From the IMG/VR virus record IMGVR_UViG_3300039412_000320: DNA of 64,000 nt. The stretch is one strand, 5' to 3'. Under the pieces are notes generated by a model that made no database searches, was not told the origin of the DNA, and saw nothing but the letters and a program-made list of their open reading frames with translations. The position numbers and the translations under genes are program-made. Position 1 is the first letter of the stretch. Each line of letters opens with the position of its first letter. Source of the DNA: a virus. Positions 1-54,467 of this stretch are shown here, one piece after another.

Positions 1-483
1 GAGGTAAGGAAGGCAGCCAAAAACCAAGGAGAAAAATTCTATTCTTTCCCTCGTCCTTGTTCGGAGGGACACACGTCAAAACGGTTTGTAAGAAATACAG
101 AATGTTACCAATGTCACATTGAACAGTCTCATGCACGACGGGCTATCCGAGCAAGAACACAACGAGAATACAAAATGTATCATTCAGCTAAAGGACGAGC
201 AAGAGAGGGAGGACTAGAGTTTGGAATCACCATGGAAGATATTAAGAAAGCGTGGCCAAAAGACAATAAGTGCCCAATTTTAGGAATTGAATTAGAGTCC
301 AATAAAACTGGAATGGGGCCTCAACGTCAATCCCCATCACTTGATAGGATTGACCCTAAAGGAGGATATGTGGTTGGCAACATCGCTGTTATATCCTACA
401 AAGCTAATTGCATAAAACAAAATGAAACTAATCCCGAAATTTTTGAATCAATGGCTAGGTGGTTACGTTTTAATAAAAAGTAG
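1..483 (+). CDS. HNH-family homing endonuclease, 5'-partial (frame is open to the window start)
   Basis: In-frame with no stop from nt 1. Zn-finger CSEGH..CYQCH, then SPSLDRIDPKGGYVVGNIAVISYKAN motif shared with ORFs 12924-13310 and 63122-63874. Confidence 0.55.
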   Translation, partial: EVRKAAKNQGEKFYSFPRPCSEGHTSKRFVRNTECYQCHIEQSHARRAIRARTQREYKMYHSAKGRAREGGLEFGITMEDIKKAWPKDNKCPILGIELESNKTGMGPQRQSPSLDRIDPKGGYVVGNIAVISYKANCIKQNETNPEIFESMARWLRFNKK

Positions 484-494
484 AGGAGGAAAGT

Positions 495-2063
495 TTGTCA
501 TTTGATATACAAGCTGATAAAAATCAAATAGGCTCTGTGTATCTTCTTCACTTCTTAGGAGGTGGGATTTTTCATGGGTCTCAAGCAAGGGTTCGCCATT
601 ATTGCGGATTTGCTTTAGACCCCGAGGCCCGCATTGCTTTACATATGAATGGGACTTCACGGGCCAGACTTATGGAGGTTGCCCATCAGCGACATGTAGA
701 ATTTACCGTGGCTCGTATTTGGAGTGGAGTGACTCGTGAGTTCGAGCGCAAACTCAAGAACAGTGGTGGTCTGTCCCGCCACTGCCCAATTTGTAAGGCG
801 GAGGGTACCGACCGGGATTCTGTGCGTAAGAAACAGCAGGCTCCTGCGGTGCAGGAAGTACGGGTAGTGGAGGAGAACGAAGTAAAGCATATCGAGCTTA
901 TCCCAAGACCCAAGACCGCTGCGCTCACAAGAGACAACGCCCGTTGGAATGGCAAGCCGTTTTCCTTGGGAGCGGTGTCCTTGCTGGATGGGCACATTGA
1001 AGAAGCCCACAACTATCAGGAGTGCAAGGCGGGTGGATGGCACCACAGCCACATATTCAGCCAGCCGATTCTGGAGAGGGAACAGAGTGAATACGACTGG
1101 ACCAAAACCGACCCTCGTGCCCCCGAAGGTCCGCAAGGTGGTGGACCCGCCATCGGCTGGGGCGATACCCCATGGGGAGACTCCCATGGAAAGACCAGTG
1201 GAGATATCACCATATTCTGGGTAGAAGATGATGGGTCAATCGGTTGCAACTACCCACTTCCCGAAAATATCAAAGCGGCCATTAAGAAGCAGATTCAGGT
1301 CATCAGGTGGAGAAGGGCCGCTGAGGAGGATACACTTGCCAAGCTCGTATGGCAGTTCCGAGAGGAACAAGAGGATTGGTATGAGTGGTTAGAGGACAAA
1401 TCCTGTTTCCGTGAACAGTGCCTCTGTTTGGCGGACCTGTTAGCGAAGTTTCTGCGGGAACATGGTTTCCCTGATGCCCATCGGGCGGGTGGGTATTATG
1501 GAGAAGGACCGGAGAAGGGTGAGTATTTACAAGTAGGAAGGCATGGACTACATTGGTGGGTAGAGACGCAGGATAAAATCATCGACATCACCTGCGACCA
1601 ATTCCACCCCGGAGAAGAAGATGATTGGCGAGTGGTAATCACCGACCTTAACGACCCGGAGTATCAACGAAAGGGCACCGGCTCGGCGTTGGTCCCCAAG
1701 ACCGCTGAGGAGATTCCCGAGATTCTCTATCACGTGACTTTTAAGAGCCGGGTTCCTAAGATACTTCAAGAGGGACTGGTTCCCCAAAAGGAGCCGAACT
1801 TCCCCTTTGAGGAGAACCGGGGTTTAGTATTTCTGACGGCGATTGAGGGAGTGGATTATTGGAAAAACCTTCTCGCCGAGTTTATACGGGGCAAGGATGA
1901 TGAGTTGGTTACTCTTCGCATCAAGACTGAGGGGATGCGTTTGGCAAAGGACCCCTTGGGAATGGGAGAAACTGGTGTTCTTTCATATTCAACCCACCTT
2001 GTTCCCCCCAAGAATATCACAGTGCTACCAGAGCCAAGAAAGATTGCCTCCGTAGAACAATAG
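495..2063 (+). CDS. Multidomain protein: N-terminal GIY-YIG-like nuclease domain, CPICKAE zinc ribbon, C-terminal KptA/Tpt1-like LYH(V)T domain
   Basis: GSVYLL..HYCGFALDPEARIALHMNG..FERKLKN resembles GIY-YIG motifs. ILYHVTFKS..LVFLTAIEG..LVTLRIKT aligns to KptA FLYHGTAS..YVHLSADEA..VILTVKA. SD aggagg upstream. Confidence 0.5.
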   Translation: MSFDIQADKNQIGSVYLLHFLGGGIFHGSQARVRHYCGFALDPEARIALHMNGTSRARLMEVAHQRHVEFTVARIWSGVTREFERKLKNSGGLSRHCPICKAEGTDRDSVRKKQQAPAVQEVRVVEENEVKHIELIPRPKTAALTRDNARWNGKPFSLGAVSLLDGHIEEAHNYQECKAGGWHHSHIFSQPILEREQSEYDWTKTDPRAPEGPQGGGPAIGWGDTPWGDSHGKTSGDITIFWVEDDGSIGCNYPLPENIKAAIKKQIQVIRWRRAAEEDTLAKLVWQFREEQEDWYEWLEDKSCFREQCLCLADLLAKFLREHGFPDAHRAGGYYGEGPEKGEYLQVGRHGLHWWVETQDKIIDITCDQFHPGEEDDWRVVITDLNDPEYQRKGTGSALVPKTAEEIPEILYHVTFKSRVPKILQEGLVPQKEPNFPFEENRGLVFLTAIEGVDYWKNLLAEFIRGKDDELVTLRIKTEGMRLAKDPLGMGETGVLSYSTHLVPPKNITVLPEPRKIASVEQ

Positions 2064-2075
2064 GAAGACAAGAAT

Positions 2076-3116
2076 GTGGTAGCCCATATAGGAAGCTACC
2101 GTATCGTTGTAGATGACCCCGGAGACGCTAAATATATTACGGCATGGACGGAGGACAACAAATGTGTTGGCAAACTATCTACCAAACGACAGAGCGACAG
2201 TGGACCCCTGAACGACTATCTCGGGATTGCACTGGTGGAAGTGAAACCACGGCATCGGGGATACGGACTGGGCAAGGCGATGTACTTTGCCCTGATGCAG
2301 TTCATGAATCCGAAATGGAAGGGAATCAAGAGCTACCTCCCGGAGAGATACAATAAGAAGCGGGTTCCCAACATCTGGCGTAGACTGCAAGGCTACAAAC
2401 TTCCCGGAGAAGAAGACTGGATGGTTGCCGACCGGGATAAGGTTGCCAAGATAGCGTCAGGTCAGGACTCCCCGGACTGGGAAGAGGATGAGGATTCTCT
2501 CCTCACCAAGAAAGCTTGGCAGGATGAGCGCTTCTCCTATTGGGGATTGCAGTTCGCCGTTGACAAAGCGGAGGGGATCATTGCCGCCAATCCCCGGCCT
2601 ACGCAGAAGGCTCCCAAGGCATTTCTCAAAGCCTTTGTTGGCACCGTGGAAGATGACAAGGCTGAGGAAGAGGGTAGAATCAACCTCATGAATGTGGGCC
2701 TGAATAAGGAACACATGCAGACCGTTGATGCTGAGAAGCCCGGTATTGTTGCTCCCCTCATTTTCAAGCCGGACAAGACTCACTCCGAACCGCAGAAACA
2801 CTACATCCTCATTGACGGAAACCACCGGGCTAAGAAGCGCCTCCAAATGGGTCTGGACTTCATGGAAGTCTACCCCCTCACCCCCGAGGAAGCGTGGCAG
2901 TGCATGGCTCCGTACACCTTCCCCAACCTGTTGAAAATCTATGTTAACCCGACCAAAAAGGTGAGGAAGAAGGCGGAAGAGCAGCCCGCCAGACTCCTCT
3001 ATGTTGACGACATGCGCCGACCCACCGCTCCTGATGTTGATTGGGTCAGGAATTATGAAGAGTTCTTCCAGTACATGACGACGCATCCCATGCCCGAGGC
3101 TATTAGTTTTGGATAA
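2076..3116 (+). CDS. GNAT acetyltransferase - ParB/Srx-like nuclease domain fusion
   Basis: GNAT motif A VKPRHRGYGLGKAMYFAL. C-terminal ILIDGNHRAKKRLQMG resembles the ParB/sulfiredoxin DGxHR motif. Confidence 0.5.
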   Translation: MVAHIGSYRIVVDDPGDAKYITAWTEDNKCVGKLSTKRQSDSGPLNDYLGIALVEVKPRHRGYGLGKAMYFALMQFMNPKWKGIKSYLPERYNKKRVPNIWRRLQGYKLPGEEDWMVADRDKVAKIASGQDSPDWEEDEDSLLTKKAWQDERFSYWGLQFAVDKAEGIIAANPRPTQKAPKAFLKAFVGTVEDDKAEEEGRINLMNVGLNKEHMQTVDAEKPGIVAPLIFKPDKTHSEPQKHYILIDGNHRAKKRLQMGLDFMEVYPLTPEEAWQCMAPYTFPNLLKIYVNPTKKVRKKAEEQPARLLYVDDMRRPTAPDVDWVRNYEEFFQYMTTHPMPEAISFG

Positions 3117-3157
3117 TGGGGGTGATATCTTTTGACTTCGTATCTATTATATAGAGG

Positions 3158-3946
3158 ATGCGAATGACTATTAGAGGCAATTGCACCGTTTGTGGGGGGA
3201 ACTTCAAGCGTCGTTATGCTAAGAACTCCGTTCCTATTGTGAAGCTCTGTTCTAATAAGTGCAGAAGGGAGTGGCTACAAAAGGACAAGGTCAAAAAGGA
3301 GTGCATCGTTTGTAATAAGGTATTTTCCGTAAGCGCCTCAGTAGCTTATAGATATGTCACCTGTAGTATTGAATGCAAGCGTAAACATAAGGAGGGGGAT
3401 AAAAATGGAAACTGGCGAGGCGGTATAGCGGGAAATAGAAAGAAAGAGATTCGTTCCGGTAAGCTTCGTCGTTGGCGGAAAGCGGTCTTTGAAAGAGATG
3501 GACCCCACTGTGTCTTATGCGGGTCTAGTGATGGGTTAGAGGCTGACCGCATAAAGCCATGGTCTCTCTATCCAGAGTTTAGATATGAAGTAAGTAATGG
3601 ACGGATATTGTGCAAGATTTGTCATAACAAGCACACCAGAGAGTTAGCCGCCGAACGAAAGAGACTTGAGGCATTGGGGTATGTACGGATAACTTGTCCA
3701 CGAGAGTACGAGATTTTGGTTTGTCCCAGATGTGGGGTATCTTTCCTTAACAAGAGTGGTCAGAGTATCTATTGCGGAAAAAGGTGTCAAAGAGCGGAAG
3801 GACAGAAACGGTTAAGGGTAGCTAAAGCTGCCCGTGGGGAATGTAAGTGTTGTAGCAATCCAGTTGCCCCTAATTACAGTCGTTGTATTAGATGTCTCGA
3901 AAAGCAAAGAGTGGAGATGGCTGAATACAGAAAGCCTGATGTATGA
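3158..3946 (+). CDS. HNH endonuclease with multiple CxxC zinc fingers
   Basis: Many CxxC pairs. GPHCVLCGS..LEADRIKP..N..LCKICHNKH HNH core. Ends with ATGA overlap onto the next ORF. Confidence 0.55.
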   Translation: MRMTIRGNCTVCGGNFKRRYAKNSVPIVKLCSNKCRREWLQKDKVKKECIVCNKVFSVSASVAYRYVTCSIECKRKHKEGDKNGNWRGGIAGNRKKEIRSGKLRRWRKAVFERDGPHCVLCGSSDGLEADRIKPWSLYPEFRYEVSNGRILCKICHNKHTRELAAERKRLEALGYVRITCPREYEILVCPRCGVSFLNKSGQSIYCGKRCQRAEGQKRLRVAKAARGECKCCSNPVAPNYSRCIRCLEKQRVEMAEYRKPDV

Positions 3947-4656
3947 GAGATTTAACACAACCAGAGGCAGGCGGTCTTGGACTAACCGCTGCTCGTTATG
4001 TTATTGATAACAATCTTTCCATAAAGCGGTGGTTTGTTCATTCACCCAATATAATGGAGAAAAAAGAGTTAGAAAGCCTCTTATTTAACTACTCTCCTGA
4101 TGGCTACGACTCATCTTTGTACAAGACTCCCCACGTTAATGAAGAAGAGCAAGTCTACGGTGGGAAGATAAAGGGAGGCTTCCGGGTGAAGGCTGCCCGG
4201 CGCAGAGTAAATCCCCTTCTGCAACCGTCCGGTCCGTGGCCTGAACGCTCCGCCGATTGGTCTAGGCTTTCTCAAAATGGAGGTTGGATATCTCGGGACG
4301 GGCGACCTCTCCCCATGACTCACCCCTACGAACTCCACGGAGAGTGGGCGATGGCGGAAGACCTGTGCGGCATGGATGATTCAGAGGTGGAGGAGCAGGG
4401 GGGAGAGGATTACCTCGGATATGCCGAGAACCTTGCCATGGAGAATGGGCACCTCCGGGTTGACCGGGATGCTGGTCAGTTTTCCATACAGGCACGAAAT
4501 GTCACAAAGAGCCGCCGACTCATCACCGAGGCTCTGTTGATGACGCCATTCAAGGGAGAAGTGACCTTGGAGATGGGTCCACACGACCGCCCAAACTGGT
4601 CTAAAAGCCTCATTTCCACGCAGGATGCCGCAGATTGGCTAGAAAATATTCAATGA
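3943..4656 (+). CDS. hypothetical protein
   Basis: 237-aa ORF, start overlaps upstream stop (ATGA). No recognisable motif. Confidence 0.4.
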   Translation: MRDLTQPEAGGLGLTAARYVIDNNLSIKRWFVHSPNIMEKKELESLLFNYSPDGYDSSLYKTPHVNEEEQVYGGKIKGGFRVKAARRRVNPLLQPSGPWPERSADWSRLSQNGGWISRDGRPLPMTHPYELHGEWAMAEDLCGMDDSEVEEQGGEDYLGYAENLAMENGHLRVDRDAGQFSIQARNVTKSRRLITEALLMTPFKGEVTLEMGPHDRPNWSKSLISTQDAADWLENIQ

Positions 4657-4664
4657 CAGAATAA

Positions 4665-4701
4665 ATGAACTTTCTGAAGCACTTATAGGGGGAAAGTTCA
4701 T
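4665..4701 (+). promoter_or_regulatory. RBS/start-codon sequestering hairpin upstream of GIY-YIG gene
   Basis: Perfect 10-bp inverted repeat atgaactttc / gaaagttcat. The 3' arm contains the ATG at 4700 and follows the SD aggggga. Confidence 0.5.
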
Positions 4702-5407
4702 GTTTATCTATTTGATTGTAAATCATGAAACAGGAAAGTATTATGTCGGTCAACATACAGGTCATAATCTAAAGAAGTACCTTCAACAAAAATTTTCAGA
4801 TGCCAGACACGGACGAGGGGGAAATTCTCGTCTTTATAATTCCATGCGTAAACACCCCTTTCCTCATCTTTGGTCCATCCACGCCCTCCGTTCCGATATC
4901 CAAGCTAAAGCCGAGCTTGATGAGACCGAGCGGGACTTCATCAAGTTCCTTCGTGCTCAAGACCCTGAGTATGGCTACAATCTTTGTCGTGGAGGGGAGG
5001 GGTTTACCGGACTGCATTCTTCTCAAACTTGTGCTAAAATGAGTGAAGGGGTTAAACGAGCTTGGGCTAACCCCGAAAAAAGAGCCAAGCAATCGGCAAA
5101 TCTCAAAGCTGACTGGGCTAAACCTGAGTCTTTTTCTAATCGGGTTCAAGCGATTAGGGATTCATGGGCGGACCCTTATTCTCGTTCTAATCGTATGAAG
5201 GCTTTTGAAAATCTTGATTTTCACAGTAAAATGAGCACGGTTAATAAGAAAACATGGTCTGACCCAGAGAGAAGGAAAAAACAAGCAGCACTTCAAAGAG
5301 AGCGATGGACAAACCCCGAATACCGTGCCAAAATGAGTAATCTAGCTAAAAATCAAAGCCGAGGTACGGGACAGAAGTTTGTTGAAGCACTACCACTAGA
5401 CTCTTAA
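4700..5407 (+). CDS. GIY-YIG homing endonuclease with NUMOD3-like repeats
   Basis: MFIYLIVNHETGKYYVGQHTG (GIY..YVG), conserved R/E/N downstream. Repeated W(A/S/T)NPE..R.K motifs (NUMOD3-like). Paralogue of 38479-39327. Confidence 0.75.
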   Translation: MFIYLIVNHETGKYYVGQHTGHNLKKYLQQKFSDARHGRGGNSRLYNSMRKHPFPHLWSIHALRSDIQAKAELDETERDFIKFLRAQDPEYGYNLCRGGEGFTGLHSSQTCAKMSEGVKRAWANPEKRAKQSANLKADWAKPESFSNRVQAIRDSWADPYSRSNRMKAFENLDFHSKMSTVNKKTWSDPERRKKQAALQRERWTNPEYRAKMSNLAKNQSRGTGQKFVEALPLDS

Positions 5408-5423
5408 ACTCTTTAATAGGCAC

Positions 5424-6848
5424 ATGGAAGAGCTTATCTACAAGACGGCGGGAGTTTGGGATAACCTTGACCGGGGATTCCTTGAGAAGATACACAACCA
5501 TGCCCCCGGAGTGGTTGTGGGTCATCTCAGTACTTTACTTAGGAATCAACGACTTAGGGAAATATATGAGAAAGTACTTGAAACCCCCATCAAGACCTTC
5601 AATAAACCGGAAGAGGTGGAGTTGGAGGGTGGTTCCCCCTTAAAGTGGCAAGGTGGATACGGGGTTTCCCACGGTGGTTCGATGATATTTATCAACCCCG
5701 CCATCAGCACCACCAACATTGTCAAAACTCTGTTTGAGGAAGGCGCTCACGCTATTTGGGCAGCGGAGGGGCGACCATCTAAACCGTTTGACCCCGCTCA
5801 TCCCCCCACCGAGAAAGAATATCTCTCTGACCCCGAAGAGCTTTTTGCCAAGCGTATGGCAGACCGTGCTTTCGCTATAGCTACGGGAGGGATAAAGACT
5901 GCCGCTTGGGCAGAGGCAACCGACTTCTCTTCCGACCCCCAGTGGCACGACGTGTTCTACGGAAATCCCTCGCCAGAGCGCATAAAGGCCCTTGCCAGCT
6001 TCCTTCGCTCCGACCCCAACCGCTTCATTACCCTTTATCACGGTACCGCCTCTGATTTGCCAGTGATGGAGGAGGGGTTGCTTCCGACCAGTCCCAGCAG
6101 GGCTAAATCGTATCAATCCAGTCCCGGTTACGTGTATCTCTCCGTATATCCGGGGAACGCCAAGAACTTTGGAGAACTGGCTTACCCCGGAGAGGATATC
6201 ACTGTCTACGCTGTCAATGTCACCGCCCGGCGATTACTGCCGGATACTGACCAGCTTGCCAATCAGCGGTCAGTGGGTAAGGAAGTGGGGAACAGCCTCG
6301 CTGAAAGCTTGGCAATCGGACATGGGGCACGAGTAAAGGGAGCAGTAGGTCCGATGCAGCTTTACAAGGCTGCCGCTAAAAAGTTGCGACTCCCCCCCGA
6401 CATCATAGACGGTACACGAAGCTTTCTGTGGGCTATCGTGAATGACCGGGTGATTTTTTCCTTGGAGATTGAACCCCACGTTATCTGGTTTAAACGAGTT
6501 GGACTTTCCGATTCCGGCCCGGCGTTCGACCGTATCCCCCGAGGGAGAATCTGGGTTCAATCGGCCCGTGATGAGGTCGTAATTTTTACCGAGGCAGGAA
6601 GTGGTGGTATCACGGGGCAGGCGGATTTCACCTTCGCCCCGGAGCATGTTGTAAAGGCTATGTTGCAGACCTTCCCTCAGCTTCGAGACTTTAACATCGT
6701 TGACGATATCCCTTCAAATCTTGTGGTAACCTCCTCTGTACATAAAAGAGGGGGAAGTCTCGCATCTAAGACAGCCCACATTTTATTGGCCGGAATAGGA
6801 GAAGATGACCGTGCGTACCTGAAATGGGATAGCAAACAAGCTAAGTAG
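5424..6848 (+). CDS. Multidomain protein: KptA/Tpt1-like LYHGTAS domain plus the ~90-aa GPxFDRIPRG module (paralogue of parts of the 2025-aa protein)
   Basis: ITLYHGTASDLPVMEEGL..YVYLSVYPGNAKNFG..DITVYAVNV matches E. coli KptA FLYHGTASRFLDEIKKQGL..YVHLSADEATARKVG..VILTVKA. N-terminal LSTLLRNQ vs KptA LSFVLRHK. SGPAFDRIPRG..FAPEHVV..FPQLRDFNIVDD module. Confidence 0.55.
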   Translation: MEELIYKTAGVWDNLDRGFLEKIHNHAPGVVVGHLSTLLRNQRLREIYEKVLETPIKTFNKPEEVELEGGSPLKWQGGYGVSHGGSMIFINPAISTTNIVKTLFEEGAHAIWAAEGRPSKPFDPAHPPTEKEYLSDPEELFAKRMADRAFAIATGGIKTAAWAEATDFSSDPQWHDVFYGNPSPERIKALASFLRSDPNRFITLYHGTASDLPVMEEGLLPTSPSRAKSYQSSPGYVYLSVYPGNAKNFGELAYPGEDITVYAVNVTARRLLPDTDQLANQRSVGKEVGNSLAESLAIGHGARVKGAVGPMQLYKAAAKKLRLPPDIIDGTRSFLWAIVNDRVIFSLEIEPHVIWFKRVGLSDSGPAFDRIPRGRIWVQSARDEVVIFTEAGSGGITGQADFTFAPEHVVKAMLQTFPQLRDFNIVDDIPSNLVVTSSVHKRGGSLASKTAHILLAGIGEDDRAYLKWDSKQAK

Positions 6849-14424: not shown

Positions 14425-14591
14425 GAGTCATCCTCCTCCGCATAGCGGCGTTCGACGGCAGCGGCTTTAATGCCGCAGTAATAGCCAAAGCATACCGATG
14501 CGAGGACTATAAGTCCCAAACCCAACGGGGCCGCTTTGACTAACCATAACATTCCAAACAGGATACGGGATAGCATCGACTTTACCCCCAT
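14418..14591 (-). CDS. small single-TM protein (holin-like candidate), not in ORF track (57 aa)
   Basis: Manual translation MGVKSMLSRILFGMLWLVKAAPLGLGLIVLASVCFGYYCGIKAAAVERRYAEEDDSC. Stop overlaps start of 13987-14424 (ATGTTGA). Confidence 0.3.
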   Translation of the reverse strand: MGVKSMLSRILFGMLWLVKAAPLGLGLIVLASVCFGYYCGIKAAAVERRYAEEDDSC

Positions 14592-14693
14592 ACCTATAAT
14601 ACTGAAAACCTAGAAAGTTCCCCAAAACCTCTTGCCGGGTAGCCACTGCTCCCATGCGCTGTCGAATAAGCAGTTATCCGGGGGCATCGGTTT

Positions 14694-20600: not shown

Positions 20601-21359
20601 TCATTCACCGGACTGAGGAGACGCTGGTTCCGCTGGACCGGTCACACCTGACGCTGCCTTGGCTTCCTCTTGCTTTTTGACTATTTCTTCCATGCTCAAT
20701 ATTCTTATAGGCACTACAGGGGAAGCAAGCACTTCCACCGGCTCCGGTTCCTTGGGAGGAAGAATGTAACCAAGCAGGGAAAGCTCCACTTGCATATTCT
20801 CTTTTGCAATCGCCGCCATCTTGGACTCAAACTCCTTCCGGAAATACAACCGGGGACGGGAAAGCAGTTCCTTTAGAGCGGCTATTCTCCCTTGTTCCCA
20901 TTGTTGGGGATCAAGAAATTTCCATGATTGCTGGAGTTTTCTGGAATAGGCGAGATACTTCACCCGGCTCTGTCCCAATATCGCAATGCGCATATCCCCC
21001 ACCACGGAGGAACTTTTTAGAGAGGGGCGGGATTGGGTGATGAGGGGAATGACGTAATTCTCCGCTTCATCGAAAGTGAATCCCAGTTTTTGGCTATCCC
21101 GGAGGAAAGCCACTACCCCGGTCTCCTCATCATTAGGTTCAGCGGCGTGGTAGAGCCATGCTGCCATGGCATCACGAACCGGATATACGCCGAGAAGCCG
21201 GTGATGCTCATGGATACCCAGTAACAGGTAATCGGCGTTCTGCCATTTACGCTTGGGGTCATTGTAAAATAATAGGATGTGTTGAATGGTCTCCTCTACC
21301 TCGGGCTTCCCCTTGGGGTTGAGAACCATTGACAGGATTTCAGAAAGCTGCGGTTTCAT
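20601..21359 (-). CDS. hypothetical protein downstream of tail fibre (start MKPQLSE)
   Basis: ORF trimmed to the first Met that does not overlap the tail-fibre gene. Confidence 0.4.
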   Translation of the reverse strand: MKPQLSEILSMVLNPKGKPEVEETIQHILLFYNDPKRKWQNADYLLLGIHEHHRLLGVYPVRDAMAAWLYHAAEPNDEETGVVAFLRDSQKLGFTFDEAENYVIPLITQSRPSLKSSSVVGDMRIAILGQSRVKYLAYSRKLQQSWKFLDPQQWEQGRIAALKELLSRPRLYFRKEFESKMAAIAKENMQVELSLLGYILPPKEPEPVEVLASPVVPIRILSMEEIVKKQEEAKAASGVTGPAEPASPQSGE

Positions 21360-21370
21360 AAAGAATAATA

Positions 21371-23584
21371 CTATGAACTCAGTAGTTGCCAGCTTAGGAA
21401 CGCCCCGGTAGTGACGGTAATGCCGTTCAAGTTTGCTCCATACAGATTGATGACGTATCCCGCCATGGTCGGAGTCACGTCGTTGGTGTGGGTCTCCGAG
21501 TAAACCTGCTGCCAATCGAGATTCGTCGGGTCAGTGCTGTACCAGTAAGTCCGGGTGCTGCTGTTGTCATGAATCTTCATCCAGAAAAGTGGCGGGAAGA
21601 TGTACATGGAAGTTGCAACATTGTGGGAGAAGGCGCTGGTAGTGGTGTAGTAGTCTATTTCCAATACCGGCACAGCGTTGTTTCCCTTGCCGATGTCAAA
21701 CGTCTTGAATTTCGTCCCGTCCGACAAAGCAATACCCTCCCACCAATTGCCGTTGTAAATGGTACTGGTGCTGTACATGAACATGGGGGGTTTGATGATG
21801 AGAGCCGCAATGACCGTCCAAGGAGTGACCGGGAGGTTTACACCATAGAAGTGGATGTTGTCCGCCCCGTTACCTGTGGCACTGAGTGCCAGCATGTTAT
21901 TCTGGGCTATCAGCGTGGACGTTCCTTGGTTGACCCAAAAGAAGCTGGAGGTGGTCGGCGGGGTGAGGCCAGAAAACGGGTAGGTGCTGCCGCTAGATGG
22001 CCCAGTGTAGCCGGTATATCCAGTAATGTTCGGCCCTGTGTAACCCGTATACCCCGTCGCACCTGTGGAAGACGCCGAACCGGGCGGGCCAGTATCTCCA
22101 GTATAGCCGGAATACCCCGTATACCCCGTAAAATTCCCCGGCCCGGTATAGCCCGTATAACCAGTTGTTCCAGCGCCCGTGTAACCGGTGTAGCCGGTGA
22201 ACGCTCCCGGCCCGGTTGGGCCGGTGTATCCAGTGTAACCGGTGAAATTGCCCGGACCCGTATATCCGGTGAACCCGCTATAGCCGGTATACCCGCTGGG
22301 TCCCGTGTAGCCTGTGGGTCCCTGTGCTCCCACGGGCAGCACGGAGCAGATGACCGAGGCATAGTAGGCGGTGGCGGCAGGGTCTTGGGTATTGAAGTTC
22401 GCCACGATGGGTGCCACGGGGATGCTTGCCGACGATGCGTAGCCGAGGCAGAACTGCTGCCCGTCAAACCCCGAGCCGCCACTGAAGGTGATGGTGTTGG
22501 TGTAGGGAGAGCTAAGGGGAGGGGTATTGAACGAGAATGCGTAGGAGACCGCCGCCCTGTTGCAGCAGAACGAGCCGAAGACCGTGGCGGCGGTATTGAT
22601 GCTGATGGTGGAGGACGTGAGCGTGCCTGCACCGTTGTTAATCGTGGCTATGCCGCTGGCGAAGACGAGCGAGGGCGTACCGGCGACCTCCACCACGCTC
22701 CAATACATATTGCCGTTGTTGACGCCGACGCTTCCTGCCCACGTCTCGCCATCACCGCCGATCACCGTCCTTGACCACACGGTGACGACGATGTCCGAGC
22801 CGGACGAGTAGGAAGTCTGCTGCGTCAAGCCTGCCGGTGGGGTGACCGTCCCCCCGTAGTAGTTGCCCTCAAGGAAGAAGAGGAGCGTGTTCCCGGCTAC
22901 CGGCGTGGTAGCCAAGGTGATGGTGAACGAGGTGGAGTTGGACTTGACAGCCTGCGCCTGCACCACGGCTGGAGGCGTGGCAGAGAGGTATCCCGTATAA
23001 CCGGTAAAGCCCGTGTAGCCTGTGAACCCACTGTATCCCGTGTACCCAGAGTAACCTGTGAAGTTACCCGGCCCGGTATAGCCAGTGTACCCGCTCGGGC
23101 CGGAATATCCGGTGTACCCTGTAAACCCAGTAAAGTTGCCGGGGCCGGTATACCCCGTGTAGCCACTTGCTCCCGTGTAACCCGTATACCCAGTGAACCC
23201 TGTGAAGTTACCGGGGCCGGTATAGCCCGTGAACCCGGTGTAGCCGGTCGGCCCAGAATACCCTGTATAACCCGTAAAATTGCCGGGGCCAGTGTAGCCG
23301 GTATACCCAGTTGGCCCAGTCGCTCCCGAGGAACCCATCTGAACTTGGGAGTAGGTGCCCGGCGACCCCACGGTGACCAACTGCCAGAAGGTCTGGTCGG
23401 AGCGGACGTACACCATCATGCCGACTTCTTGACGAAGCTGGGGGATAGCGTCACGGGCGGTGTAGTCGTCTACCTCACGCCATCCCCCGAGGCCGTAGAT
23501 AGCCTCGTGCGTCGGGAAGGTGTCGGCGTCGGTGAACGGGACAACCTGCGCAGCTACGTTTACTCCTGTGAGTGGTGTCGGCAT
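21371..23584 (-). CDS. Tail fibre protein with collagen-like G-X-Y repeats
   Basis: Two blocks of GYTGYTGPGNFTGYTGYSGPTGYTGFTG triplet repeats. Ser/Thr/Asn-rich beta-type C-terminus. Strong SD upstream. Confidence 0.7.
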   Translation of the reverse strand: MPTPLTGVNVAAQVVPFTDADTFPTHEAIYGLGGWREVDDYTARDAIPQLRQEVGMMVYVRSDQTFWQLVTVGSPGTYSQVQMGSSGATGPTGYTGYTGPGNFTGYTGYSGPTGYTGFTGYTGPGNFTGFTGYTGYTGASGYTGYTGPGNFTGFTGYTGYSGPSGYTGYTGPGNFTGYSGYTGYSGFTGYTGFTGYTGYLSATPPAVVQAQAVKSNSTSFTITLATTPVAGNTLLFFLEGNYYGGTVTPPAGLTQQTSYSSGSDIVVTVWSRTVIGGDGETWAGSVGVNNGNMYWSVVEVAGTPSLVFASGIATINNGAGTLTSSTISINTAATVFGSFCCNRAAVSYAFSFNTPPLSSPYTNTITFSGGSGFDGQQFCLGYASSASIPVAPIVANFNTQDPAATAYYASVICSVLPVGAQGPTGYTGPSGYTGYSGFTGYTGPGNFTGYTGYTGPTGPGAFTGYTGYTGAGTTGYTGYTGPGNFTGYTGYSGYTGDTGPPGSASSTGATGYTGYTGPNITGYTGYTGPSSGSTYPFSGLTPPTTSSFFWVNQGTSTLIAQNNMLALSATGNGADNIHFYGVNLPVTPWTVIAALIIKPPMFMYSTSTIYNGNWWEGIALSDGTKFKTFDIGKGNNAVPVLEIDYYTTTSAFSHNVATSMYIFPPLFWMKIHDNSSTRTYWYSTDPTNLDWQQVYSETHTNDVTPTMAGYVINLYGANLNGITVTTGAFLSWQLLSS

Positions 23585-35411: not shown

Positions 35412-36061
35412 TTATCCGACTGGCAGAGGTCCACATTGAGGAAGACTACGACGGCGAGAAGATTCTCCGTCAGATAGAGAAGTACGCTCGCAACTGTTAC
35501 AAGTCCGAAGCCAAGACCACGGACATGGATGGCACGAAGGCGTTCGTGAAGAAACTTCTCCATACCCTCAAACATGAGGGCATTGCCGACCACCATATGA
35601 TTACCGTGCGGGTAGTCTGTGACCGGGGCATAAGCCATGAAATAGTCCGGCACCGCATCGCCGCTTATCTGCAAGAGTCTACCCGCTATTGCGATTATAC
35701 CAAGGCGGGGCAGATTCAAGTCATCGACATCAAACAGTTCATGACCTCGGCGCAGTTCGATGTCTGGACCTATGCCATGAACGAAGCGGAAAAAGCTTAC
35801 AATGAGCTTCGCCGCTTGGGGGCACGCCCGGAGATTGCTCGGTCGGTCCTTCCCAACAGTCTCAAGACCGAAATCATCATGAGCCTGAACCTCACAAGTT
35901 GGCGAAACTTCTTCAAGAAGCGGGCCTGCAACGCCGGGGCGCACGTTCAGATGAAAGAGATTGCTGTACCACTACTCAAGGAGTTCCAGAGAGTCATTCC
36001 CGTGATTTTTGATGACTTGATACCAATAATCATGCCGGAGCGACCAAAGGAGACCAGTTAG
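35408..36061 (+). CDS. thyX: Flavin-dependent thymidylate synthase ThyX
   Basis: ThyX signature RHRIAAYLQESTRY (RHRx7S). Confidence 0.8.
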   Translation: MIIRLAEVHIEEDYDGEKILRQIEKYARNCYKSEAKTTDMDGTKAFVKKLLHTLKHEGIADHHMITVRVVCDRGISHEIVRHRIAAYLQESTRYCDYTKAGQIQVIDIKQFMTSAQFDVWTYAMNEAEKAYNELRRLGARPEIARSVLPNSLKTEIIMSLNLTSWRNFFKKRACNAGAHVQMKEIAVPLLKEFQRVIPVIFDDLIPIIMPERPKETS

Positions 36062-36114
36062 TCTAAAGACCCCAGCACATTTGACTATGCAATCCTTATA
36101 CAGAAGGTATAGCA

Positions 36115-36768
36115 ATGAATTACCAGAAAATCTACTACCAGCTTATAGATAAAGCTAAGAACAGCCCTCTTGAGCTAAGTAGATATTATGAATCTCATCA
36201 CATAATCCCCCAATCCTTGGGTGGTAGCTCTCGGAAAGACAACTTGGTGTGGCTAACTGGAAAGCAGCACTTCATTGCTCACCGTCTTCTAGCCAAGTTT
36301 ACCGAAGGTAGAAACCGATGTAAAATGATTCTGGCTTTGCATAGATTTCTACATAGCAAGAACTGTGAGCTTCATATAAATTCTAGGGAGTACGAGTATA
36401 TAAGGCAGCAAGCCGCCATTTCTATAAGTATCCTAAACACAGGCAGAAGGTTTTCTGATAGAGCAAAAGAGAATATGTCCACAGCACAGCGGGAAAGATA
36501 CTCCTCTGTTCCTACTCATTGGAAGGGGCGACATCATAGTGACAAGACCAAAGAGAAAATGCGGGAAGCCCAAGGGGGAGCACGTAACCCCCAGTTTGGG
36601 AAATCTCGGACCAAGGACGAAAAACTCAGAATATCTTCGGCATTAAGGGGAAGAAAATTGTCTCCCGAACAAGTATTAGAAAGATGTTCTCGGCGTCATA
36701 GTCCTAAAAGCAGAAGAAAGATTAGCCAGAGCATAAAGGAGTGGCATGTTCAACGAAAAATGGGATAG
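36115..36768 (+). CDS. HNH homing endonuclease with NUMOD-like repeats, inserted between thyX and dCMP deaminase
   Basis: HHIIPQSLGGSSRKDNLVWLTGKQHFIAH HNH motif. C-terminal repeated R.SP..RRKIS motifs. Confidence 0.65.
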   Translation: MNYQKIYYQLIDKAKNSPLELSRYYESHHIIPQSLGGSSRKDNLVWLTGKQHFIAHRLLAKFTEGRNRCKMILALHRFLHSKNCELHINSREYEYIRQQAAISISILNTGRRFSDRAKENMSTAQRERYSSVPTHWKGRHHSDKTKEKMREAQGGARNPQFGKSRTKDEKLRISSALRGRKLSPEQVLERCSRRHSPKSRRKISQSIKEWHVQRKMG

Positions 36769-37496: not shown

Positions 37497-38123
37497 ATGG
37501 ATTTCATGTGGATTGACGAAGACCGGCTGGCTACCCTTTACGAGGGAATGAGGATAATGGAGAGCCTCAGTCACGGAAAAGTGTGGGAGATGGAGATTTT
37601 CCTGTACGGCATGACCTCTGACCGGGGTGTCATCAGTGCCGCCAAGGAATCCATCATTGACCTTTTGGAGGAGTACTGGGACGAAGACGGTGAAACCACC
37701 CTTCGAGAGGAAGAGATTGCCCTGAACGAGGTTGCCATCGCTATCCACCTTAACTCCGACACCATCTACACTCTGTTGGGCAGGCACGGACTTGATGTCT
37801 ATCAAATGGATTTCGCCTACCTTGGAAAAGAGGGAGAAGGGGTCCGGGTTACCTCTTTCAGCACCGGAGCCGGAAGCCGAACCCGGCTAATGTTCAGCGG
37901 TCTCAAAAACATCGTCCTTGCCGAGGGAGACATTCATCTGCGGGAATATTTGACCCAGCAGAAGACCGGCCAACCCATGACAATCAATAAGCGAGTGGAG
38001 AGGGGTCAATCCGCCGTGGCTCCCCCGACCCCCACGACTCCACAGGCTCCTCCCACGGGTGGAACTCCTCCGGTACAAAACATTGCCAGTGTTGTGGAGA
38101 AATTCCTTGACCGCCGCCGCTGA
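37497..38123 (+). CDS. hypothetical protein
   Basis: 208-aa ORF, SD upstream. Confidence 0.4.
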   Translation: MDFMWIDEDRLATLYEGMRIMESLSHGKVWEMEIFLYGMTSDRGVISAAKESIIDLLEEYWDEDGETTLREEEIALNEVAIAIHLNSDTIYTLLGRHGLDVYQMDFAYLGKEGEGVRVTSFSTGAGSRTRLMFSGLKNIVLAEGDIHLREYLTQQKTGQPMTINKRVERGQSAVAPPTPTTPQAPPTGGTPPVQNIASVVEKFLDRRR

Positions 38124-38433
38124 AATCCCGGATACTAAAATTGGCATCGCTTCCGTGATGCCCAATCACGTCAAAGTGCAGCTTCGCTATTTGACCAAGG
38201 AAGCCAAGCACTTGAGAAGCTTTCTCTTATCAGGATACACCGGCATTGGGGCACCCTACATGGAAGAGGTGTGCATTCTCATGCCCCACATGAGGGTGTT
38301 TCCCGTGATAGAGTGCTTTTTACCCCCCTTCGAGACCCTCAAGCAAGAGGGAGTGGTCCCCGAGGATGCCGAACTGCAAAGCTACCGCATCCTTGACCAT
38401 GATGAATTAACTCTCGCCTATATTTTAAGATAA
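38059..38433 (+). CDS. hypothetical protein
   Basis: 124-aa ORF overlapping the previous one; uncertain. Confidence 0.3.
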   Translation: MELLRYKTLPVLWRNSLTAAAEIPDTKIGIASVMPNHVKVQLRYLTKEAKHLRSFLLSGYTGIGAPYMEEVCILMPHMRVFPVIECFLPPFETLKQEGVVPEDAELQSYRILDHDELTLAYILR

Positions 38434-38478
38434 TGGAAAAATGAACTTTCCAAAGTATTTATAGGAGTAGAGTTCAAA

Positions 38479-39327
38479 ATGTTCATTTATCTTATCGTTA
38501 ATCATAAGACCGGCAAATATTATGTCGGTCAGCATAAGGGAAACAATCTTAGAAAGTATCTTCAAACCAAGTTATCCGCTGCTCGGCATCAGCACAATGG
38601 AAGTTCTCACCTTTTCAATGCAATGAGAAAATATCCACAGTCTTCTCTCTGGTCTATTTACGCCCTACGTTCCGATATCCAGAATAAAACAGAGCTTGAC
38701 CAGACCGAAAGAGACTTTATTAAGTTCCTGCGGTCGCAGGACCCTGAGTGTGGGTACAACATATGCCGGGGAGGAGAGGGATTTACAGGGCCGCATTCTG
38801 AGGAATGGAAGCAAAATCAAAGCAAAATGAAAATGGCTTGGCACAGAGACCCTAGAAATTCTGAAACTAAAAGACTTTCTAATATAAAAATTAGTGAAAC
38901 CAAGAAATTAAATAGTAGACCAAAGATAAACAAGGTCTGTCCGGTGTGTGGTAAATCATTTTCTGTTTCATTTGGAAGGAAAGAAAAAATATACTGTTCA
39001 CATTTGTGTTATTCTAAACAACCAAAAAACGAAGAAAGTGAAATAAAAAGGTTAAAAAGTCTTCGTAGAGCTATTCAATCCCCACAATGTTATACTAATA
39101 GGTCAAATGCACAACTCCTTAGACGCAAAAGAGAGAAAGAACAAGGCATTAAACCTGTGATGCCCATCCGTATATTAATGCCAAAAAGGATAAAAAGACC
39201 ATACCTTTTAACTCCTAAACATTTGGAAGCTTCAAAGAACCTAGGTAAAAGTAACTTAGGAAACCATCAACGTTGGCATATAAATCGAGGAATTTCAGTT
39301 TTAAGATGCCAACATTGTCAAATATGA
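38479..39327 (+). CDS. GIY-YIG homing endonuclease (paralogue of 4700-5407)
   Basis: MFIYLIVNHKTGKYYVGQHKG. Shares its upstream 40 nt, including aaatgaactttc, with the 4700 copy. Confidence 0.75.
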   Translation: MFIYLIVNHKTGKYYVGQHKGNNLRKYLQTKLSAARHQHNGSSHLFNAMRKYPQSSLWSIYALRSDIQNKTELDQTERDFIKFLRSQDPECGYNICRGGEGFTGPHSEEWKQNQSKMKMAWHRDPRNSETKRLSNIKISETKKLNSRPKINKVCPVCGKSFSVSFGRKEKIYCSHLCYSKQPKNEESEIKRLKSLRRAIQSPQCYTNRSNAQLLRRKREKEQGIKPVMPIRILMPKRIKRPYLLTPKHLEASKNLGKSNLGNHQRWHINRGISVLRCQHCQI

Positions 39328-39358
39328 TTTAATTTTCCCATAAAACTGAGTATTTTAT

Positions 39359-39846: not shown

Positions 39847-40110
39847 AACTGCCTTGGTTGTAATCTGTATCATCTTCGTGAGTGGAGAGTTCCAAAATGC
39901 TTCGAGCGCTGGCTCTGTACCTGTGCCTGATGCATCGGGAACAGGTTAAGTCCATCATCCAGCTTTCAGCAATGCAGCCCCCGGCTCCCATCGTCATCAC
40001 CAAGGAAATGCTGGATGACCCCCGGCTCATGTGGGTAAAAGACCTCCCACAGGTGAAAGAAGCCATAGGGAAAGCTGAGAAGAAATCAGAATAAAGCAGT
40101 ATCTATAAAC

Positions 40111-41031
40111 ATGGAACAATTCAAAAAAAGTGCCACAGCAGAGACTATATATTCCACTGGAGCACAACGAGACAGTCGTATAGGCAAGGGAGCATTTCAC
40201 TGGATGCCCTGGACAGCCGTTAAGATGGTTTCTCGCATCTATGAAATAGGTAACAAACAACGAGACCTTCTCTCAGGTGGAACAGGTAATGGAGACACCC
40301 GTAATTGGGAGAACGGGATGAAGATTGCGGATTTGCTTGATAGCGCTATAAGGCATATAACCGCTCATTTAGAGGGTGACAGAAGTGAACCCCATCTTTC
40401 ACAAGCTATGTGGAACCTGCTTAACGCCCTACAAACATCTATATGGGTATACACCGGACAGAGGCCCCCAGAACTTAATAATCTCCCCGACCATATCCAC
40501 CCTTGGAAGCCGGGAAATCCGTCTCCATGTCCGCTTAGTTCTCAAGAGATAGAGTGGCTAGAAACCTGGGGAATACAAAGGAACGAGTTTCCAGACCTTA
40601 ATGACCCCGTACAAAGTGCTTCTCATCTCGCTGCCCTCGTAGATGGAGAAGGGACCATTTCAATCGTAAAAAGGGAAACAAAGCGCCGGGAGGCTTACCG
40701 TCTATCCATAAGGGTCTATAATACTTCAGAAACCCTCAAAAATTACCTTGAGAAAAGATGGGGAGCGACTACGGTTAGAAGAAAAGGGCGAAGGAAAATC
40801 CACAAGGACTGCTATACGATGATATGGACGAGTTCAAAAGCTGAAGATATTCTTCGTAGGATATGGCCGTACTTAATCATCAAGACCGCCCAAGCAAACT
40901 TGGCAGTGGCTTTTCAAACTTTGGTAAAAAACATCAATCCTGGATGCAAAGGAATACCAGAAAAAACTCTGCAACAACTGCGGTTTATGAAGGAGGAGAT
41001 AAATCGTATGAACGAAAAAGGACCCAAGTAA
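40111..41031 (+). CDS. Fusion of a nucleotide pyrophosphohydrolase-like N-domain with a LAGLIDADG endonuclease domain
   Basis: N-terminal GAQRDSRIGKGAFHWMPW..AIRHITAHLEGDRSEPHLSQAMWNLLNAL resembles the dATP/dGTP diphosphohydrolase N-terminal domain. C-terminal LAALVDGEGTIS LAGLIDADG motif. Confidence 0.45.
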   Translation: MEQFKKSATAETIYSTGAQRDSRIGKGAFHWMPWTAVKMVSRIYEIGNKQRDLLSGGTGNGDTRNWENGMKIADLLDSAIRHITAHLEGDRSEPHLSQAMWNLLNALQTSIWVYTGQRPPELNNLPDHIHPWKPGNPSPCPLSSQEIEWLETWGIQRNEFPDLNDPVQSASHLAALVDGEGTISIVKRETKRREAYRLSIRVYNTSETLKNYLEKRWGATTVRRKGRRKIHKDCYTMIWTSSKAEDILRRIWPYLIIKTAQANLAVAFQTLVKNINPGCKGIPEKTLQQLRFMKEEINRMNEKGPK

Positions 41032-41116
41032 ACCACCTACCGGAGTCCTTAGTATGGATGTTACTTTTAAAGATGAACGAGGGGCTGTGCATTAGGCTAC
41101 CTAAAGGAGGTGCTTA

Positions 41117-48286: not shown

Positions 48287-48303
48287 TGGTATTATGTAAG
48301 TGA
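48287..48303 (+). promoter_or_regulatory. Extended -10 promoter TGGTATTATGTAAGTGA
   Basis: Same motif as 27424. Upstream aaaaaatcccc tract. Confidence 0.5.
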
Positions 48304-48640
48304 AGGAAGAAAACGAACTACCGACCCTATACTTGTAGGGGTAAAATTGAGGCGGGGAGCCGGACGATATTGTTACCCGGTCAGCCTCACAAGATTCCGG
48401 GCCGAAAGGCCCACCAGTTTGAGGGGGCGAAAGCCCCTACCATTTTACGCCCCGAAAGGGGCACCAGTTTTGGAGAGACATGCGAAATAGGAAACCAAAC
48501 CCGATGCAGTGGCAGCCTAAGCGGCATTTTAGCCGCCCAAGCTTCGGTGGGCTTCCGTTCGCAGGAGTCGCATAGCGAAAAAGCGAACAGAGTGCAAGGA
48601 TGCCCACCGAACTCAAGGTTCTGTGGGCTTTTTTATTTTG
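48296..48640 (+). ncRNA. Candidate ~340-nt ncRNA: three tandem GAAA-tetraloop hairpins each followed by ACCAGTTTT-like tails, ending in an intrinsic terminator
   Basis: gggccGAAAggccc-accagttt, ggggcGAAAgcccc-taccatttt, ccccGAAAgggg-caccagtttt. Bounded by the promoter at 48287 and the terminator at 48603-48638. No credible ORF. Confidence 0.45.
48603..48638 (+). terminator. Rho-independent terminator
   Basis: cccaccgaac-tcaag-gttctgtggg followed by cttttttatttt. Confidence 0.6.
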
Positions 48641-49024: not shown

Positions 49025-49099
49025 GGTGACTGTAACTCAGTGGCAGAGTGCCTGACTGTGAATCAGGATACGGGGGTTCGATTCCCCTCAGTCACCCCA
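49025..49099 (+). tRNA. tRNA-His(GTG) with encoded G-1
   Basis: g-gtgactg/cagtcac, cctga-ctGTGaa-tcagg, ttcgatt T-loop, CCA encoded. Confidence 0.7.
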
Positions 49100-49104
49100 A
49101 GTTT

Positions 49105-49176
49105 GGTGAGTGAACCCCACAGGGTACTCGGTCTGGTCCGAGGGGGCGGGGGCAGCCCACTTCGTCATTCACCCCA
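49105..49176 (+). other. Unclassified CCA-ending structured element (9-bp terminal stem, no T-loop)
   Basis: ggtgagtga...tcattcacc-cca. Internal ctcgg-tctggt-ccgag and G-rich hairpins. Not a canonical tRNA. Confidence 0.3.
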
Positions 49177-49182
49177 ATATAT

Positions 49183-49260
49183 GGTCCCGTAGCTCAGCCC
49201 GTATAGAGCAACTCCCTCCGAAGGAGAAGGTCGTCGGTTAAAATCCGACCGGGACTTCCA
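49183..49260 (+). tRNA. tRNA-Arg(CCG)
   Basis: ggtcccg/cgggact, anticodon loop ctCCGaa, T-loop ttaaaat (atypical). Confidence 0.5.
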
Positions 49261-49266
49261 GATTAG

Positions 49267-49342
49267 GCCCCTGTAGCTCAGTGGACAGAGCGCCCGGTTT
49301 CGACCCGGATGGTCGCAGGTCCGAATCCTGTCAGGGGTTCCA
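49267..49342 (+). tRNA. tRNA-Arg(TCG)
   Basis: gcccctg/caggggt, cccgg-ttTCGac-ccgga, gcagg-tccgaat-cctgt. Confidence 0.5.
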
Positions 49343-49381
49343 AGATTTGAAAACAGTAATTGGACTTCGTAGTCCTTTAGT

Positions 49382-49798: not shown

Positions 49799-49868
49799 CT
49801 CAGCCCGGACTAGAGCAGCGGTCTACGAAACCGAAGGTCAGTGGGTTCAAATCCCCTCGGGGCTTCCA
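49789..49868 (+). tRNA. tRNA-Arg(ACG)
   Basis: ggccccg/cggggct, gcggt-ctACGaa-accga. D-arm near-identical to Arg(CCG). Confidence 0.55.
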
Positions 49869-50329: not shown

Positions 50330-50335
50330 AAATAT

Positions 50336-50415: not shown

Positions 50416-50421
50416 AGATGT

Positions 50422-53882: not shown

Positions 53883-54434
53883 ATGGGATACGCTGACGTA
53901 CTTGTACTAGACATGAACTGGATACCCGTGGGCTTCATGGGCTGGCAGAACGCCGTCAAGCTCTGGTTCGAGGACCGTGCCAAGATTGTCAAGGAGGACG
54001 AGGGCGGGAAGGTCCTGCACTCACCGTCCTTTGAAATGGGCATGCCAAGGGTGATAGTCGTTCGCAACGCTTGGCATCGCCGTAAGAAGCAGTCCGTCCC
54101 CTGCACCCGGCGCAACCTGTTAGTGCGTGACAATGCAACATGCCAGTACTGCGGCAAGGTGGTCCACACCTCGGAATACACGATTGACCACGTCATCCCG
54201 CTTTGCCAGAAGGGCAAGTCCGACTGGGACAACCTTGCCATCGCCTGTATGCCGTGCAACAAGGAAAAGGCCGGACGTACCCCGGCGCAGGCGGGCATGA
54301 CCTTGCTCAGCAAGCCCTATACGCCGAAGCCCACGGACCCCCGCTTCAACTTCAAGCTGCATATCAGCAAGATAAGGAACGAGTGGAAAGATTACGCACC
54401 GTACCTATACTGGAATGTTGTACTTGATAAATGA
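53883..54434 (+). CDS. HNH endonuclease
   Basis: CQYCGKVVHTSEYTIDHVIPLCQKGKSDWDNLAIACMPCNKEK. SD aaggagg. Confidence 0.65.
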   Translation: MGYADVLVLDMNWIPVGFMGWQNAVKLWFEDRAKIVKEDEGGKVLHSPSFEMGMPRVIVVRNAWHRRKKQSVPCTRRNLLVRDNATCQYCGKVVHTSEYTIDHVIPLCQKGKSDWDNLAIACMPCNKEKAGRTPAQAGMTLLSKPYTPKPTDPRFNFKLHISKIRNEWKDYAPYLYWNVVLDK

Positions 54435-54467
54435 ACTACTTACCCCATTCATTGAAGGAGAGTTTAA

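Follow-up and report, generated by a model that had tools for sequence, protein, structure and literature searches.

Two mobile endonuclease genes of a large phage, giy1 and giy2, are preceded by leaders that fold into hairpins over the Shine-Dalgarno (SD) region. Comparison of these leaders with their relatives shows, at the level of sequence analysis, that the hairpin exists, is conserved and covaries, and that its structure is maintained by selection. The hairpin probably silences transcripts that read through from the upstream gene, and a promoter-like motif in its loop would give rise to translatable ones, an arrangement resembling that of I-TevI in phage T4.

The DNA analysed, referred to here as the window, is the 64,000-nucleotide stretch of IMG/VR record IMGVR_UViG_3300039412_000320. 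It is apparently part of a large phage genome, with a G+C content of about 50% and genes for collagen-like tail-fibre and Lon-like proteins. The window carries 27 tRNA genes on its plus strand in three clusters (29133-30692, 49026-52839 and 55276-55447), and this tRNA region also houses giy3 and an HNH gene. A search of INPHARED with the window, both as DNA and as protein, gave no match, which leaves this phage without a close deposited relative. Three GIY-YIG genes are considered:

4700..5407, plus strand: giy1, a divergent GIY-YIG endonuclease gene encoding 235 amino acids (Pfam, phmmer)
38479..39327, plus strand: giy2, a giy1 paralogue with 43% identity, encoding 282 amino acids
54468..55265, plus strand: giy3, a canonical GIY-YIG gene with NUMOD3 and a GTG start

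The match of giy1 to Pfam GIY-YIG (E=0.0013) falls below the curated cut-off, and phmmer relates giy1 to giy3 at 6.8e-11. giy3 itself matches GIY-YIG at 8e-10 and NUMOD3 at 8e-18, is 30% identical to giy1 and, judged from its sequence, is a member of a different subfamily. Homologues of giy1 number 211, many of them on contigs of ~340 kb that hold several each. Pfam detects GIY-YIG in 41 of 61 family members and NUMOD3 in 17 of the 61, and a PDB sequence-profile search using the family alignment found no match. The giy1 and giy2 cassettes each lie at the very 3' end of a phage gene, in the same orientation as that gene. Both are predicted free-standing GIY-YIG homing-endonuclease cassettes, mobile as judged by their presence or absence relative to a related phage.

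This relative is represented by two IMG/VR contigs (237.5 and 316.9 kb) that are 86-96% identical to the window in aligned stretches, and its empty sites delimit both insertions:

4646..5423, plus strand: giy1 cassette, 778 nt, absent from relative L120, which has 23 nt instead (blastn)
4646..4656, plus strand: cassette-borne replacement codons and stop (TGA, 4654-4656) for the upstream ORF 3943-4656
38421..39329, plus strand: giy2 cassette, with ~7 nt in its place in relative L143, whose alignment runs to 38420 and resumes at 39330
38431..38433, plus strand: cassette-borne stop (TAA) of the upstream ORF 38059-38433

At giy1, blastn aligns L120 1922-2465 with window 4102-4645 and L120 2489-3816 with window 5424-6752. 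The protein encoded upstream of giy1 ends in DWLENIQ-stop in the window and in DWLETL-stop in L120, and the one upstream of giy2 ends in Y-I-L-R-stop in the window and in Y-V-L-stop in L143. Both inserts start inside the last codons of the upstream gene and bring new codons and a stop, then the leader, then the nuclease gene. Since the empty sites of the ~88-92% identical relative lack both gene and leader, the inserted DNA includes the leader and the new upstream stop. For giy1 and giy2, this sequence comparison shows the hairpin to belong to the mobile cassette, in agreement with a sequence-only reading of the same DNA, which had proposed that the leader motif travels with the GIY-YIG cassette. 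At giy3, the window ceases to resemble relative L145 at 54430, within the motif described below, and the relative has different DNA downstream. The last 21 nt of this junction region are only ~67% identical to L145, and the junction may lie slightly further upstream than 54430.

Other rearrangements are visible in the same alignments. An HNH gene at 3158-3946 (window 3103-4102) is absent from L120, which instead has one uninterrupted ORF (2..2473); the HNH insertion appears to have divided a gene into what are now window ORFs 2076-3116 and 3943-4656, and the stop of the HNH gene overlaps the restart ATG (ATGA at 3943-3946). Window 36025-36735 is absent from L143. Its ORF 36115-36768 is weakly similar to giy3 (phmmer 7.6e-5), has a leader with box-like TTGACTATG plus CTTATACAGAAGG, and is probably a fourth, degenerate GIY-like cassette. 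Close to giy2, the relative has an extra 1.7 kb (L143 5014-6711 versus window 39874-39882), and in window 40114-41045, which corresponds to L143 6942-7636, the window gene 40111-41031 is replaced in the relative. Turnover of gene cassettes appears intense in the region flanking giy2.

The hairpins at giy1 and giy2 are composed of the following parts:

4665..4675, plus strand: 5' arm of the giy1 hairpin (AUGAACUUUCU) (RNAfold)
4676..4690, plus strand: 15-nt giy1 loop with a degenerate promoter-like motif, CACTTATAGG for AGTATTATAGG
4691..4701, plus strand: 3' arm of the giy1 hairpin (GGAAAGUUCAU), comprising the 3' portion of the SD, the spacer and the first two bases (A, U) of the start codon
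38442..38451, plus strand: 5' arm of the giy2 hairpin, containing the box
38454..38464, plus strand: promoter-like loop motif of giy2, AGTATTTATAG
38464..38476, plus strand: 3' arm of the giy2 hairpin, interrupted, including the GGA of the SD AGGAG

The giy1 hairpin (ATGAACTTTCT / GGAAAGTTCAT) consists of 11 bp closing a 15-nt loop. Ten of these are Watson-Crick pairs and one is U-G, which bears out the perfect 10-bp hairpin described from the letters. RNAfold assigns it -11.9 kcal/mol (z=-3.72), a value matched by 2 of 200 shuffles. GGAAAG, the spacer and the AU of the ATG all fall within its 3' arm, which thus does reach the SD region and the start codon, as had been claimed. At giy2, a shortened hairpin of 6 bp had been reported; a hairpin is indeed present, at -7.6 kcal/mol (z -1.6 to -2.2), but it is an interrupted helix of 7+3 bp, and in the giy1 register 9 of 10 pairs form. 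The leader of giy3 folds at -4.8 kcal/mol (z=-0.28), with no hairpin better than chance. Consequently, the earlier claim of a hairpin over the ribosome-binding site (RBS) and start codon upstream of all three genes holds for giy1 (z=-3.7) and, more weakly, for giy2 (z about -2), but not for giy3. Relatives of giy3 in IMG/VR are at most 34% identical to it, and its leader is therefore not comparable across relatives.

The stems are A/U- and G-U-rich and moderately stable, and in view also of the z-scores at giy2, repression may be partial. An intrinsic (rho-independent) terminator was rejected on the same base composition and because the giy1 and giy2 leaders contain no terminator-like site. 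A scan of the window against Rfam at gathering score found nothing beyond tRNAs, and 4600-4760 gave no match at E<=1; the leader hairpin is covered by no Rfam family. In addition, codons 3-6 of giy2, AUUUAUCUUA, are a possible pairing partner for the 5' end of its cassette, UAAGAUAAUGG, which would enlarge the structure to -16.8 kcal/mol (window 38426-38494; z=-3.3), and more generally AAAUGAAC is complementary to the conserved gene start GUUCAUUU.

The sequence element that marks these leaders differs from the one first singled out, the 11-mer ATAAATGAACT, which had been taken as the motif common to all three GIY-YIG leaders:

4661..4671, plus strand: giy1 copy of ATAAATGAACT, exact; of its letters only GAACT, together with the next TTC, forms part of the conserved box
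4668..4674, plus strand: RACTTYC box of giy1 (AACTTTC), core of the 5' arm, pairing with GGAAAGT
54427..54437, plus strand: third copy of ATAAATGAACT, exact, overlapping the HNH stop TGA (54432-54434), with the box variant AACTACT at 54434-54440

The 11-mer is exact at giy1 and giy3 and has one mismatch at giy2 (38437-38447), and the TGA within the third copy is, as had been noted, the stop of the HNH ORF 53883-54434. At up to one mismatch, the window contains 4 matches compared with 0.72 expected, a number reached by 0 of 100 shuffles, and its occurrence in the window is non-random. The fourth match (38480, minus strand) reflects complementarity between the motif and the gene start GTTCATTTAT. 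However, the conserved element is not this 11-mer. Its ATAAAT half is not conserved among the leaders of relatives when these are anchored on the conserved trinucleotide, and at giy3 part of that half codes for the HNH protein, as GAT AAA in the window and GAC AAG in L145. Instead, the conserved core is RACTTYC following an A/T-rich run, with ACT present in 72 of 74 leaders; the giy2 box reads AACTTTC at 38444-38450. The 16-mer AAATGAACTTTCYRAA has at least 117 matches in IMG/VR, and among the matches listed only one precedes a GIY gene. By our own estimate, chance alone would produce about this rate in a collection so large, and at that scale the refuting condition set beforehand, occurrences of the motif unrelated to endonuclease genes, carries no information.

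RACTTYC pairs with the extended SD of these genes, which is GGAGGT, GAGAGGT or GGAAAGT. The 3' end of 16S rRNA is ACCUCC, and U pairs with both A and G. The box is best read as an anti-SD mimic, in which U takes the place of C in the anti-SD end of 16S rRNA, and this would account for its conservation without invoking a further function.

Scans of IMG/VR and JGI metagenomes yielded 118 loci, mostly from peat, bog and forest soil, with 74 distinct leaders including those of giy1 and giy2. In 72 of the 74, five or more of the 13 SD-zone nt (-16 to -4) are paired in the minimum-energy fold. Pairing probability over -16..+3 has a median of 0.63 in the leaders versus 0.46 in 67 other window genes (Mann-Whitney p=4.6e-9). 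MAFFT plus RNAalifold, applied to 23 leaders, returned zero pairs because differences in loop length misalign the 3' arm. Three approaches took their place: alignment to a covariance model, ungapped alignment of a sub-lineage and a script based on anchors. In the covariance-model alignment of the main lineage, 91.5% of cells are paired and 8 of 12 pairs show changes on both sides, values as high in 0 of 500 shuffles, and in slid registers the paired share drops to 46-78%. The giy1 lineage, aligned with MAFFT, ungapped and not fitted to structure, has 86% of cells paired and double changes in 6 of 11 pairs (0 of 500 shuffles as high).

The anchor-based tabulation of 62 leaders shows the purine before ACT pairing as G-C in 23 and as A-U in 22. 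Native arms are 3.8 kcal/mol more stable than arms exchanged between members (52 of 62; Wilcoxon p=2e-8), and compensatory changes are also found outside the box, in the outer and inner stem. U-G pairs, which are C-A mismatches on the other strand, are frequent, identifying the helix as one of sense-strand RNA. A chance origin of the hairpin is contradicted by the motif count, the main-lineage covariation and the arm-swap test. About ten leaders (e.g., L023, L028, L053, L066, L074 and L082) have a second architecture, in which the box is unpaired and lies just 5' of a different, perfect anti-SD arm. Since this different arm covers the SD, occlusion is kept independently of any particular arm.

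Two covariance models of the main lineage, R1 and R2, recovered all main-type GIY leaders in 76 loci, with no other match in those loci. In the window, they did not score the giy1 and giy2 leaders, and their best matches, 51578-51618 and 27255-27306, are weak. The assignment of giy1 and giy2 to the family is drawn from protein homology, the shared box and the separate giy1-lineage alignment (A7). The match at 51578-51618, the best in the window for the leader models and found on both strands, is a near-palindromic hairpin with TCAGTAT between tRNA genes.

The position of the hairpin relative to upstream translation is also constrained. A co-oriented upstream ORF is present in 73 of 74 loci, and in 38 its stop ends 14-16 nt before the A of the box. 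The gap between the upstream stop and the first paired base of the helix has a median of 10 nt among family leaders and is tightly distributed. In ribosome footprints, ~10 nt is about the reach of a terminating ribosome. With this spacing, terminating ribosomes would halt just short of melting the helix.

A second conserved element, RGTATT(A/T), lies between box and SD in 45 of 74 leaders. It lies 21-26 nt before the ATG in 43 of the 45, typically at ~23 nt, and in all 45 every base of the 5' arm is upstream of the predicted +1. The giy1 copy is degenerate, a variant common to L009 and L057. In the 60 nt preceding each of 70 window genes, no hexamer apart from the SD is more enriched than AGTATT (7 versus 0.99 expected), and GTATTA, TATTAG, TTATAG and TATTAT are also enriched in these regions. 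Instances precede, among others, the window genes at 14603 (minus), 39349, 41487, 44129, 47429 and 57995 (minus). At three sites, (A/G)GTATTAT is followed after exactly 5 nt by an SD-less ATG: 33665-33680 (plus; ATG 33678), 58669-58684 (plus; ATG 58682) and 21357-21372 (minus; ATG 21357). These ATGs mark candidate leaderless genes, which look like leaderless mRNAs from a -10 element. Two of the three sites share an identical 19-mer, AGTATTATTCTTTATGAAA.

The relative phage has kept the loop motif, and in three other phages it stands ahead of HU-like genes. Upstream of non-GIY genes in the loci of other phages, RGTATTA is marginally enriched (4 of 132 versus 1.2 expected). Taken at moderate strength, these occurrences suggest that the RGTATT loop motif, which resembles the -10 element of this phage, is a promoter. 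Two known promoter types were rejected. A consensus scan finds no canonical sigma-70 promoter in the giy1 and giy2 leaders, with no -35 element and many motif copies ending in G/A rather than T. The T4 late promoter TATAAATA occurs twice exactly in the window, which is the chance level, and in the giy2 loop on the antisense strand only.

Together, these elements suggest how the ~55-nt leader would work. It is composed of five parts: the replacement codons and stop; the A/T-rich run with RACTTYC; the RGTATT(A/T) loop; the extended SD; and the start codon. Read-through from the upstream gene has indirect support in the co-orientation of 73 of 74 loci with the upstream ORF and in the lack of terminator-like sites in the giy1 and giy2 leaders. 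On read-through transcripts, the box together with its flanking bases would pair with the SD, spacer and start codon, ribosomes would be excluded, and the nuclease would presumably be made at a very low level. Transcripts initiated at the loop motif would have their 5' ends beyond the entire inhibitory arm, on its 3' side, and hence be translatable. The outcome would be a switch dependent on time or promoter class, like that of T4 I-TevI, and in giy1, given its degenerate loop motif, the switch is probably weakened. Translation of the upstream gene would end just short of the helix, leaving the hairpin either insulated or partly opened.

The loop motif is central to the main alternative, a constitutive throttle in which synthesis is low on all transcripts, the motif is inherited or has another use, and expression comes from breathing of the hairpin or coupling to termination. 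The hairpin is retained in giy1, L009 and L057 despite their degenerate RGTATT, ~29 of 74 leaders do not have RGTATT, and the tight stop-to-helix spacing equally suits a termination-coupled partial opening. Such a throttle is nevertheless unlikely. It leaves unexplained why RGTATT keeps to -21 to -26 in 43 of 45 leaders and is always 3' of the inhibitory arm, the second architecture included, and why it marks other gene starts in the window, SD-less ones among them.

Conversely, the leader might act purely as DNA, with RACTTYC as an upstream element, RGTATT as the -10 and the hairpin as a by-product of a pyrimidine box placed near a purine-rich SD. Box and motif do occur together at non-GIY sites (14603, minus; 27290, minus; 27425, plus), and in the leader of the HNH gene:

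3133..3157, plus strand: leader of the HNH gene 3158-3946, likewise arranged as box plus motif (TTGACTTC..TATTATATAGAGG)

ACTTYC is likewise enriched upstream of other ORFs in related loci (14 versus 4.1 expected). A DNA-only role is nonetheless highly improbable, as compensatory changes extend beyond the box, native arms fit better than swapped ones, box and motif are anywhere from 2 to 14 nt apart, and second-architecture leaders occlude the SD with a different arm. Least credible of all, by analogy with the autorepression of I-TevI (PMC2988022), is that the endonuclease binds a putative homing-site-like sequence in its leader and represses its own promoter: the giy2 loop AGTATTTATAGGAG resembles AGTATTTTAGATAGGAGG beside the empty target in L143 and giy1 TTATAGGGGGAA resembles CTATAGATGGAA at the empty site in L120, but the giy2 resemblance arises because both are promoter-plus-SD regions, and homing-site mimicry as a general feature was rejected since no such motif is common to the sequences downstream of the GIY stop in ~60 other loci.

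Similar layouts are scattered over the window. AACTTTC..AGTATTATAGG precedes a 52-codon, non-GIY ORF at 14576-14625 (minus), and divergent box-plus-motif sequences, ACTTTCtgtGGTATTATA at 27255-27306 (minus) and CGACTACCggtGGTATTATA at 27409-27452 (plus), are also non-GIY. The leader design is thus not strictly confined to nuclease genes. At 48288-48440, a GAACTACC box, a hairpin (GACCCTA..TAGGGGT) and G+C-rich stem-loops come after an extended -10-like TGGTATTATG. This region, with no convincing ORF start and no Rfam match, may represent the remains of a cassette leader or encode a small RNA preceding the tRNA array.

The favoured reading, an RBS hairpin on read-through transcripts combined with a proximal promoter, has well-described precedents. 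I-TevI, I-TevII, I-TevIII, segB and Aeh1 mobE all have the RBS in a hairpin on transcripts from upstream promoters, and in the T4 paradigm transcripts from a suitably positioned late promoter are unable to form the hairpin (PMC2988022). I-TevI also binds a leader sequence resembling its homing site and represses its own promoter, and the T4 late genes e, soc and 49 have their RBS sequestered on early transcripts (PMC2988022). Like I-TevI, the genes described here encode GIY-YIG homing endonucleases, with a predicted hairpin over the SD on transcripts from upstream and a promoter-like element sited so that its transcripts would miss the inhibitory arm. Unlike I-TevI, which is encoded by the td intron ORF, the giy genes are free-standing and reside in an unrelated large phage rich in tRNA genes. 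Their promoter-like motif is RGTATT(A/T) rather than the T4 late promoter, and an autorepression operator, a feature of I-TevI, is putative at most.

As in Aeh1 mobE and T4 segB, whose hairpins are known here through PMC2988022 (citing Gibb & Edgell 2007 and 2009), the endonuclease gene is free-standing, is located within or between phage genes and has its RBS in a hairpin, co-transcription being proposed in the present case. According to that account, mobE is an HNH enzyme, unlike the giy products, and both precedents are single loci, whereas here one leader design recurs, with covariation, in more than 70 cassettes. A further difference from the precedents as described there is that the cassette supplies the stop of the upstream gene at a fixed distance. 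The proposed contrast between silent long read-through transcripts and active shorter ones from a proximal promoter is shared with e, soc and 49, although these are ordinary phage genes and not mobile cassettes.

The sequence-only reading, which had likened the hairpin to the translational throttle of T4 endonuclease genes, was right in kind, as the conservation and covariation in ~70 leaders attest, but it misidentified the conserved element. It also missed the RGTATT loop motif, which would turn a simple throttle into an I-TevI-type switch. As T4-type RBS-sequestering regulation, the leader hairpin is of a known kind, and this assignment is well supported, with unusually good comparative evidence from sequence. 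A broader proposal is more tentative: the leader may be a portable, self-insulating module and a new cis-regulatory RNA family, defined by its own stop ~10 nt before the helix, an anti-SD mimic and a loop promoter. This is possible, if rather doubtful. If it is true, finding this layout also at the HNH gene at 3158 and at ORF 36115 would imply convergence of unrelated nuclease families on the module, or its exchange between them.

The analysis defines the exact boundaries of two cassettes, those of giy1 and giy2, and provides a candidate promoter motif, RGTATTAT/AG, together with candidate leaderless genes for these phages. The leader may also be used as a sequence tag for finding such cassettes in metagenomes. 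The evidence for this type of hairpin includes family-wide covariation, and the T4 and Aeh1 precedents retrieved are single-locus. A cassette-borne stop at a fixed distance from the helix is suggested as a design principle. For the biology of these phages, the rule known from T4, by which an endonuclease gene is silenced by an RBS hairpin and released from a proximal promoter, would thereby extend to unrelated, uncultivated large phages of soil and peat.
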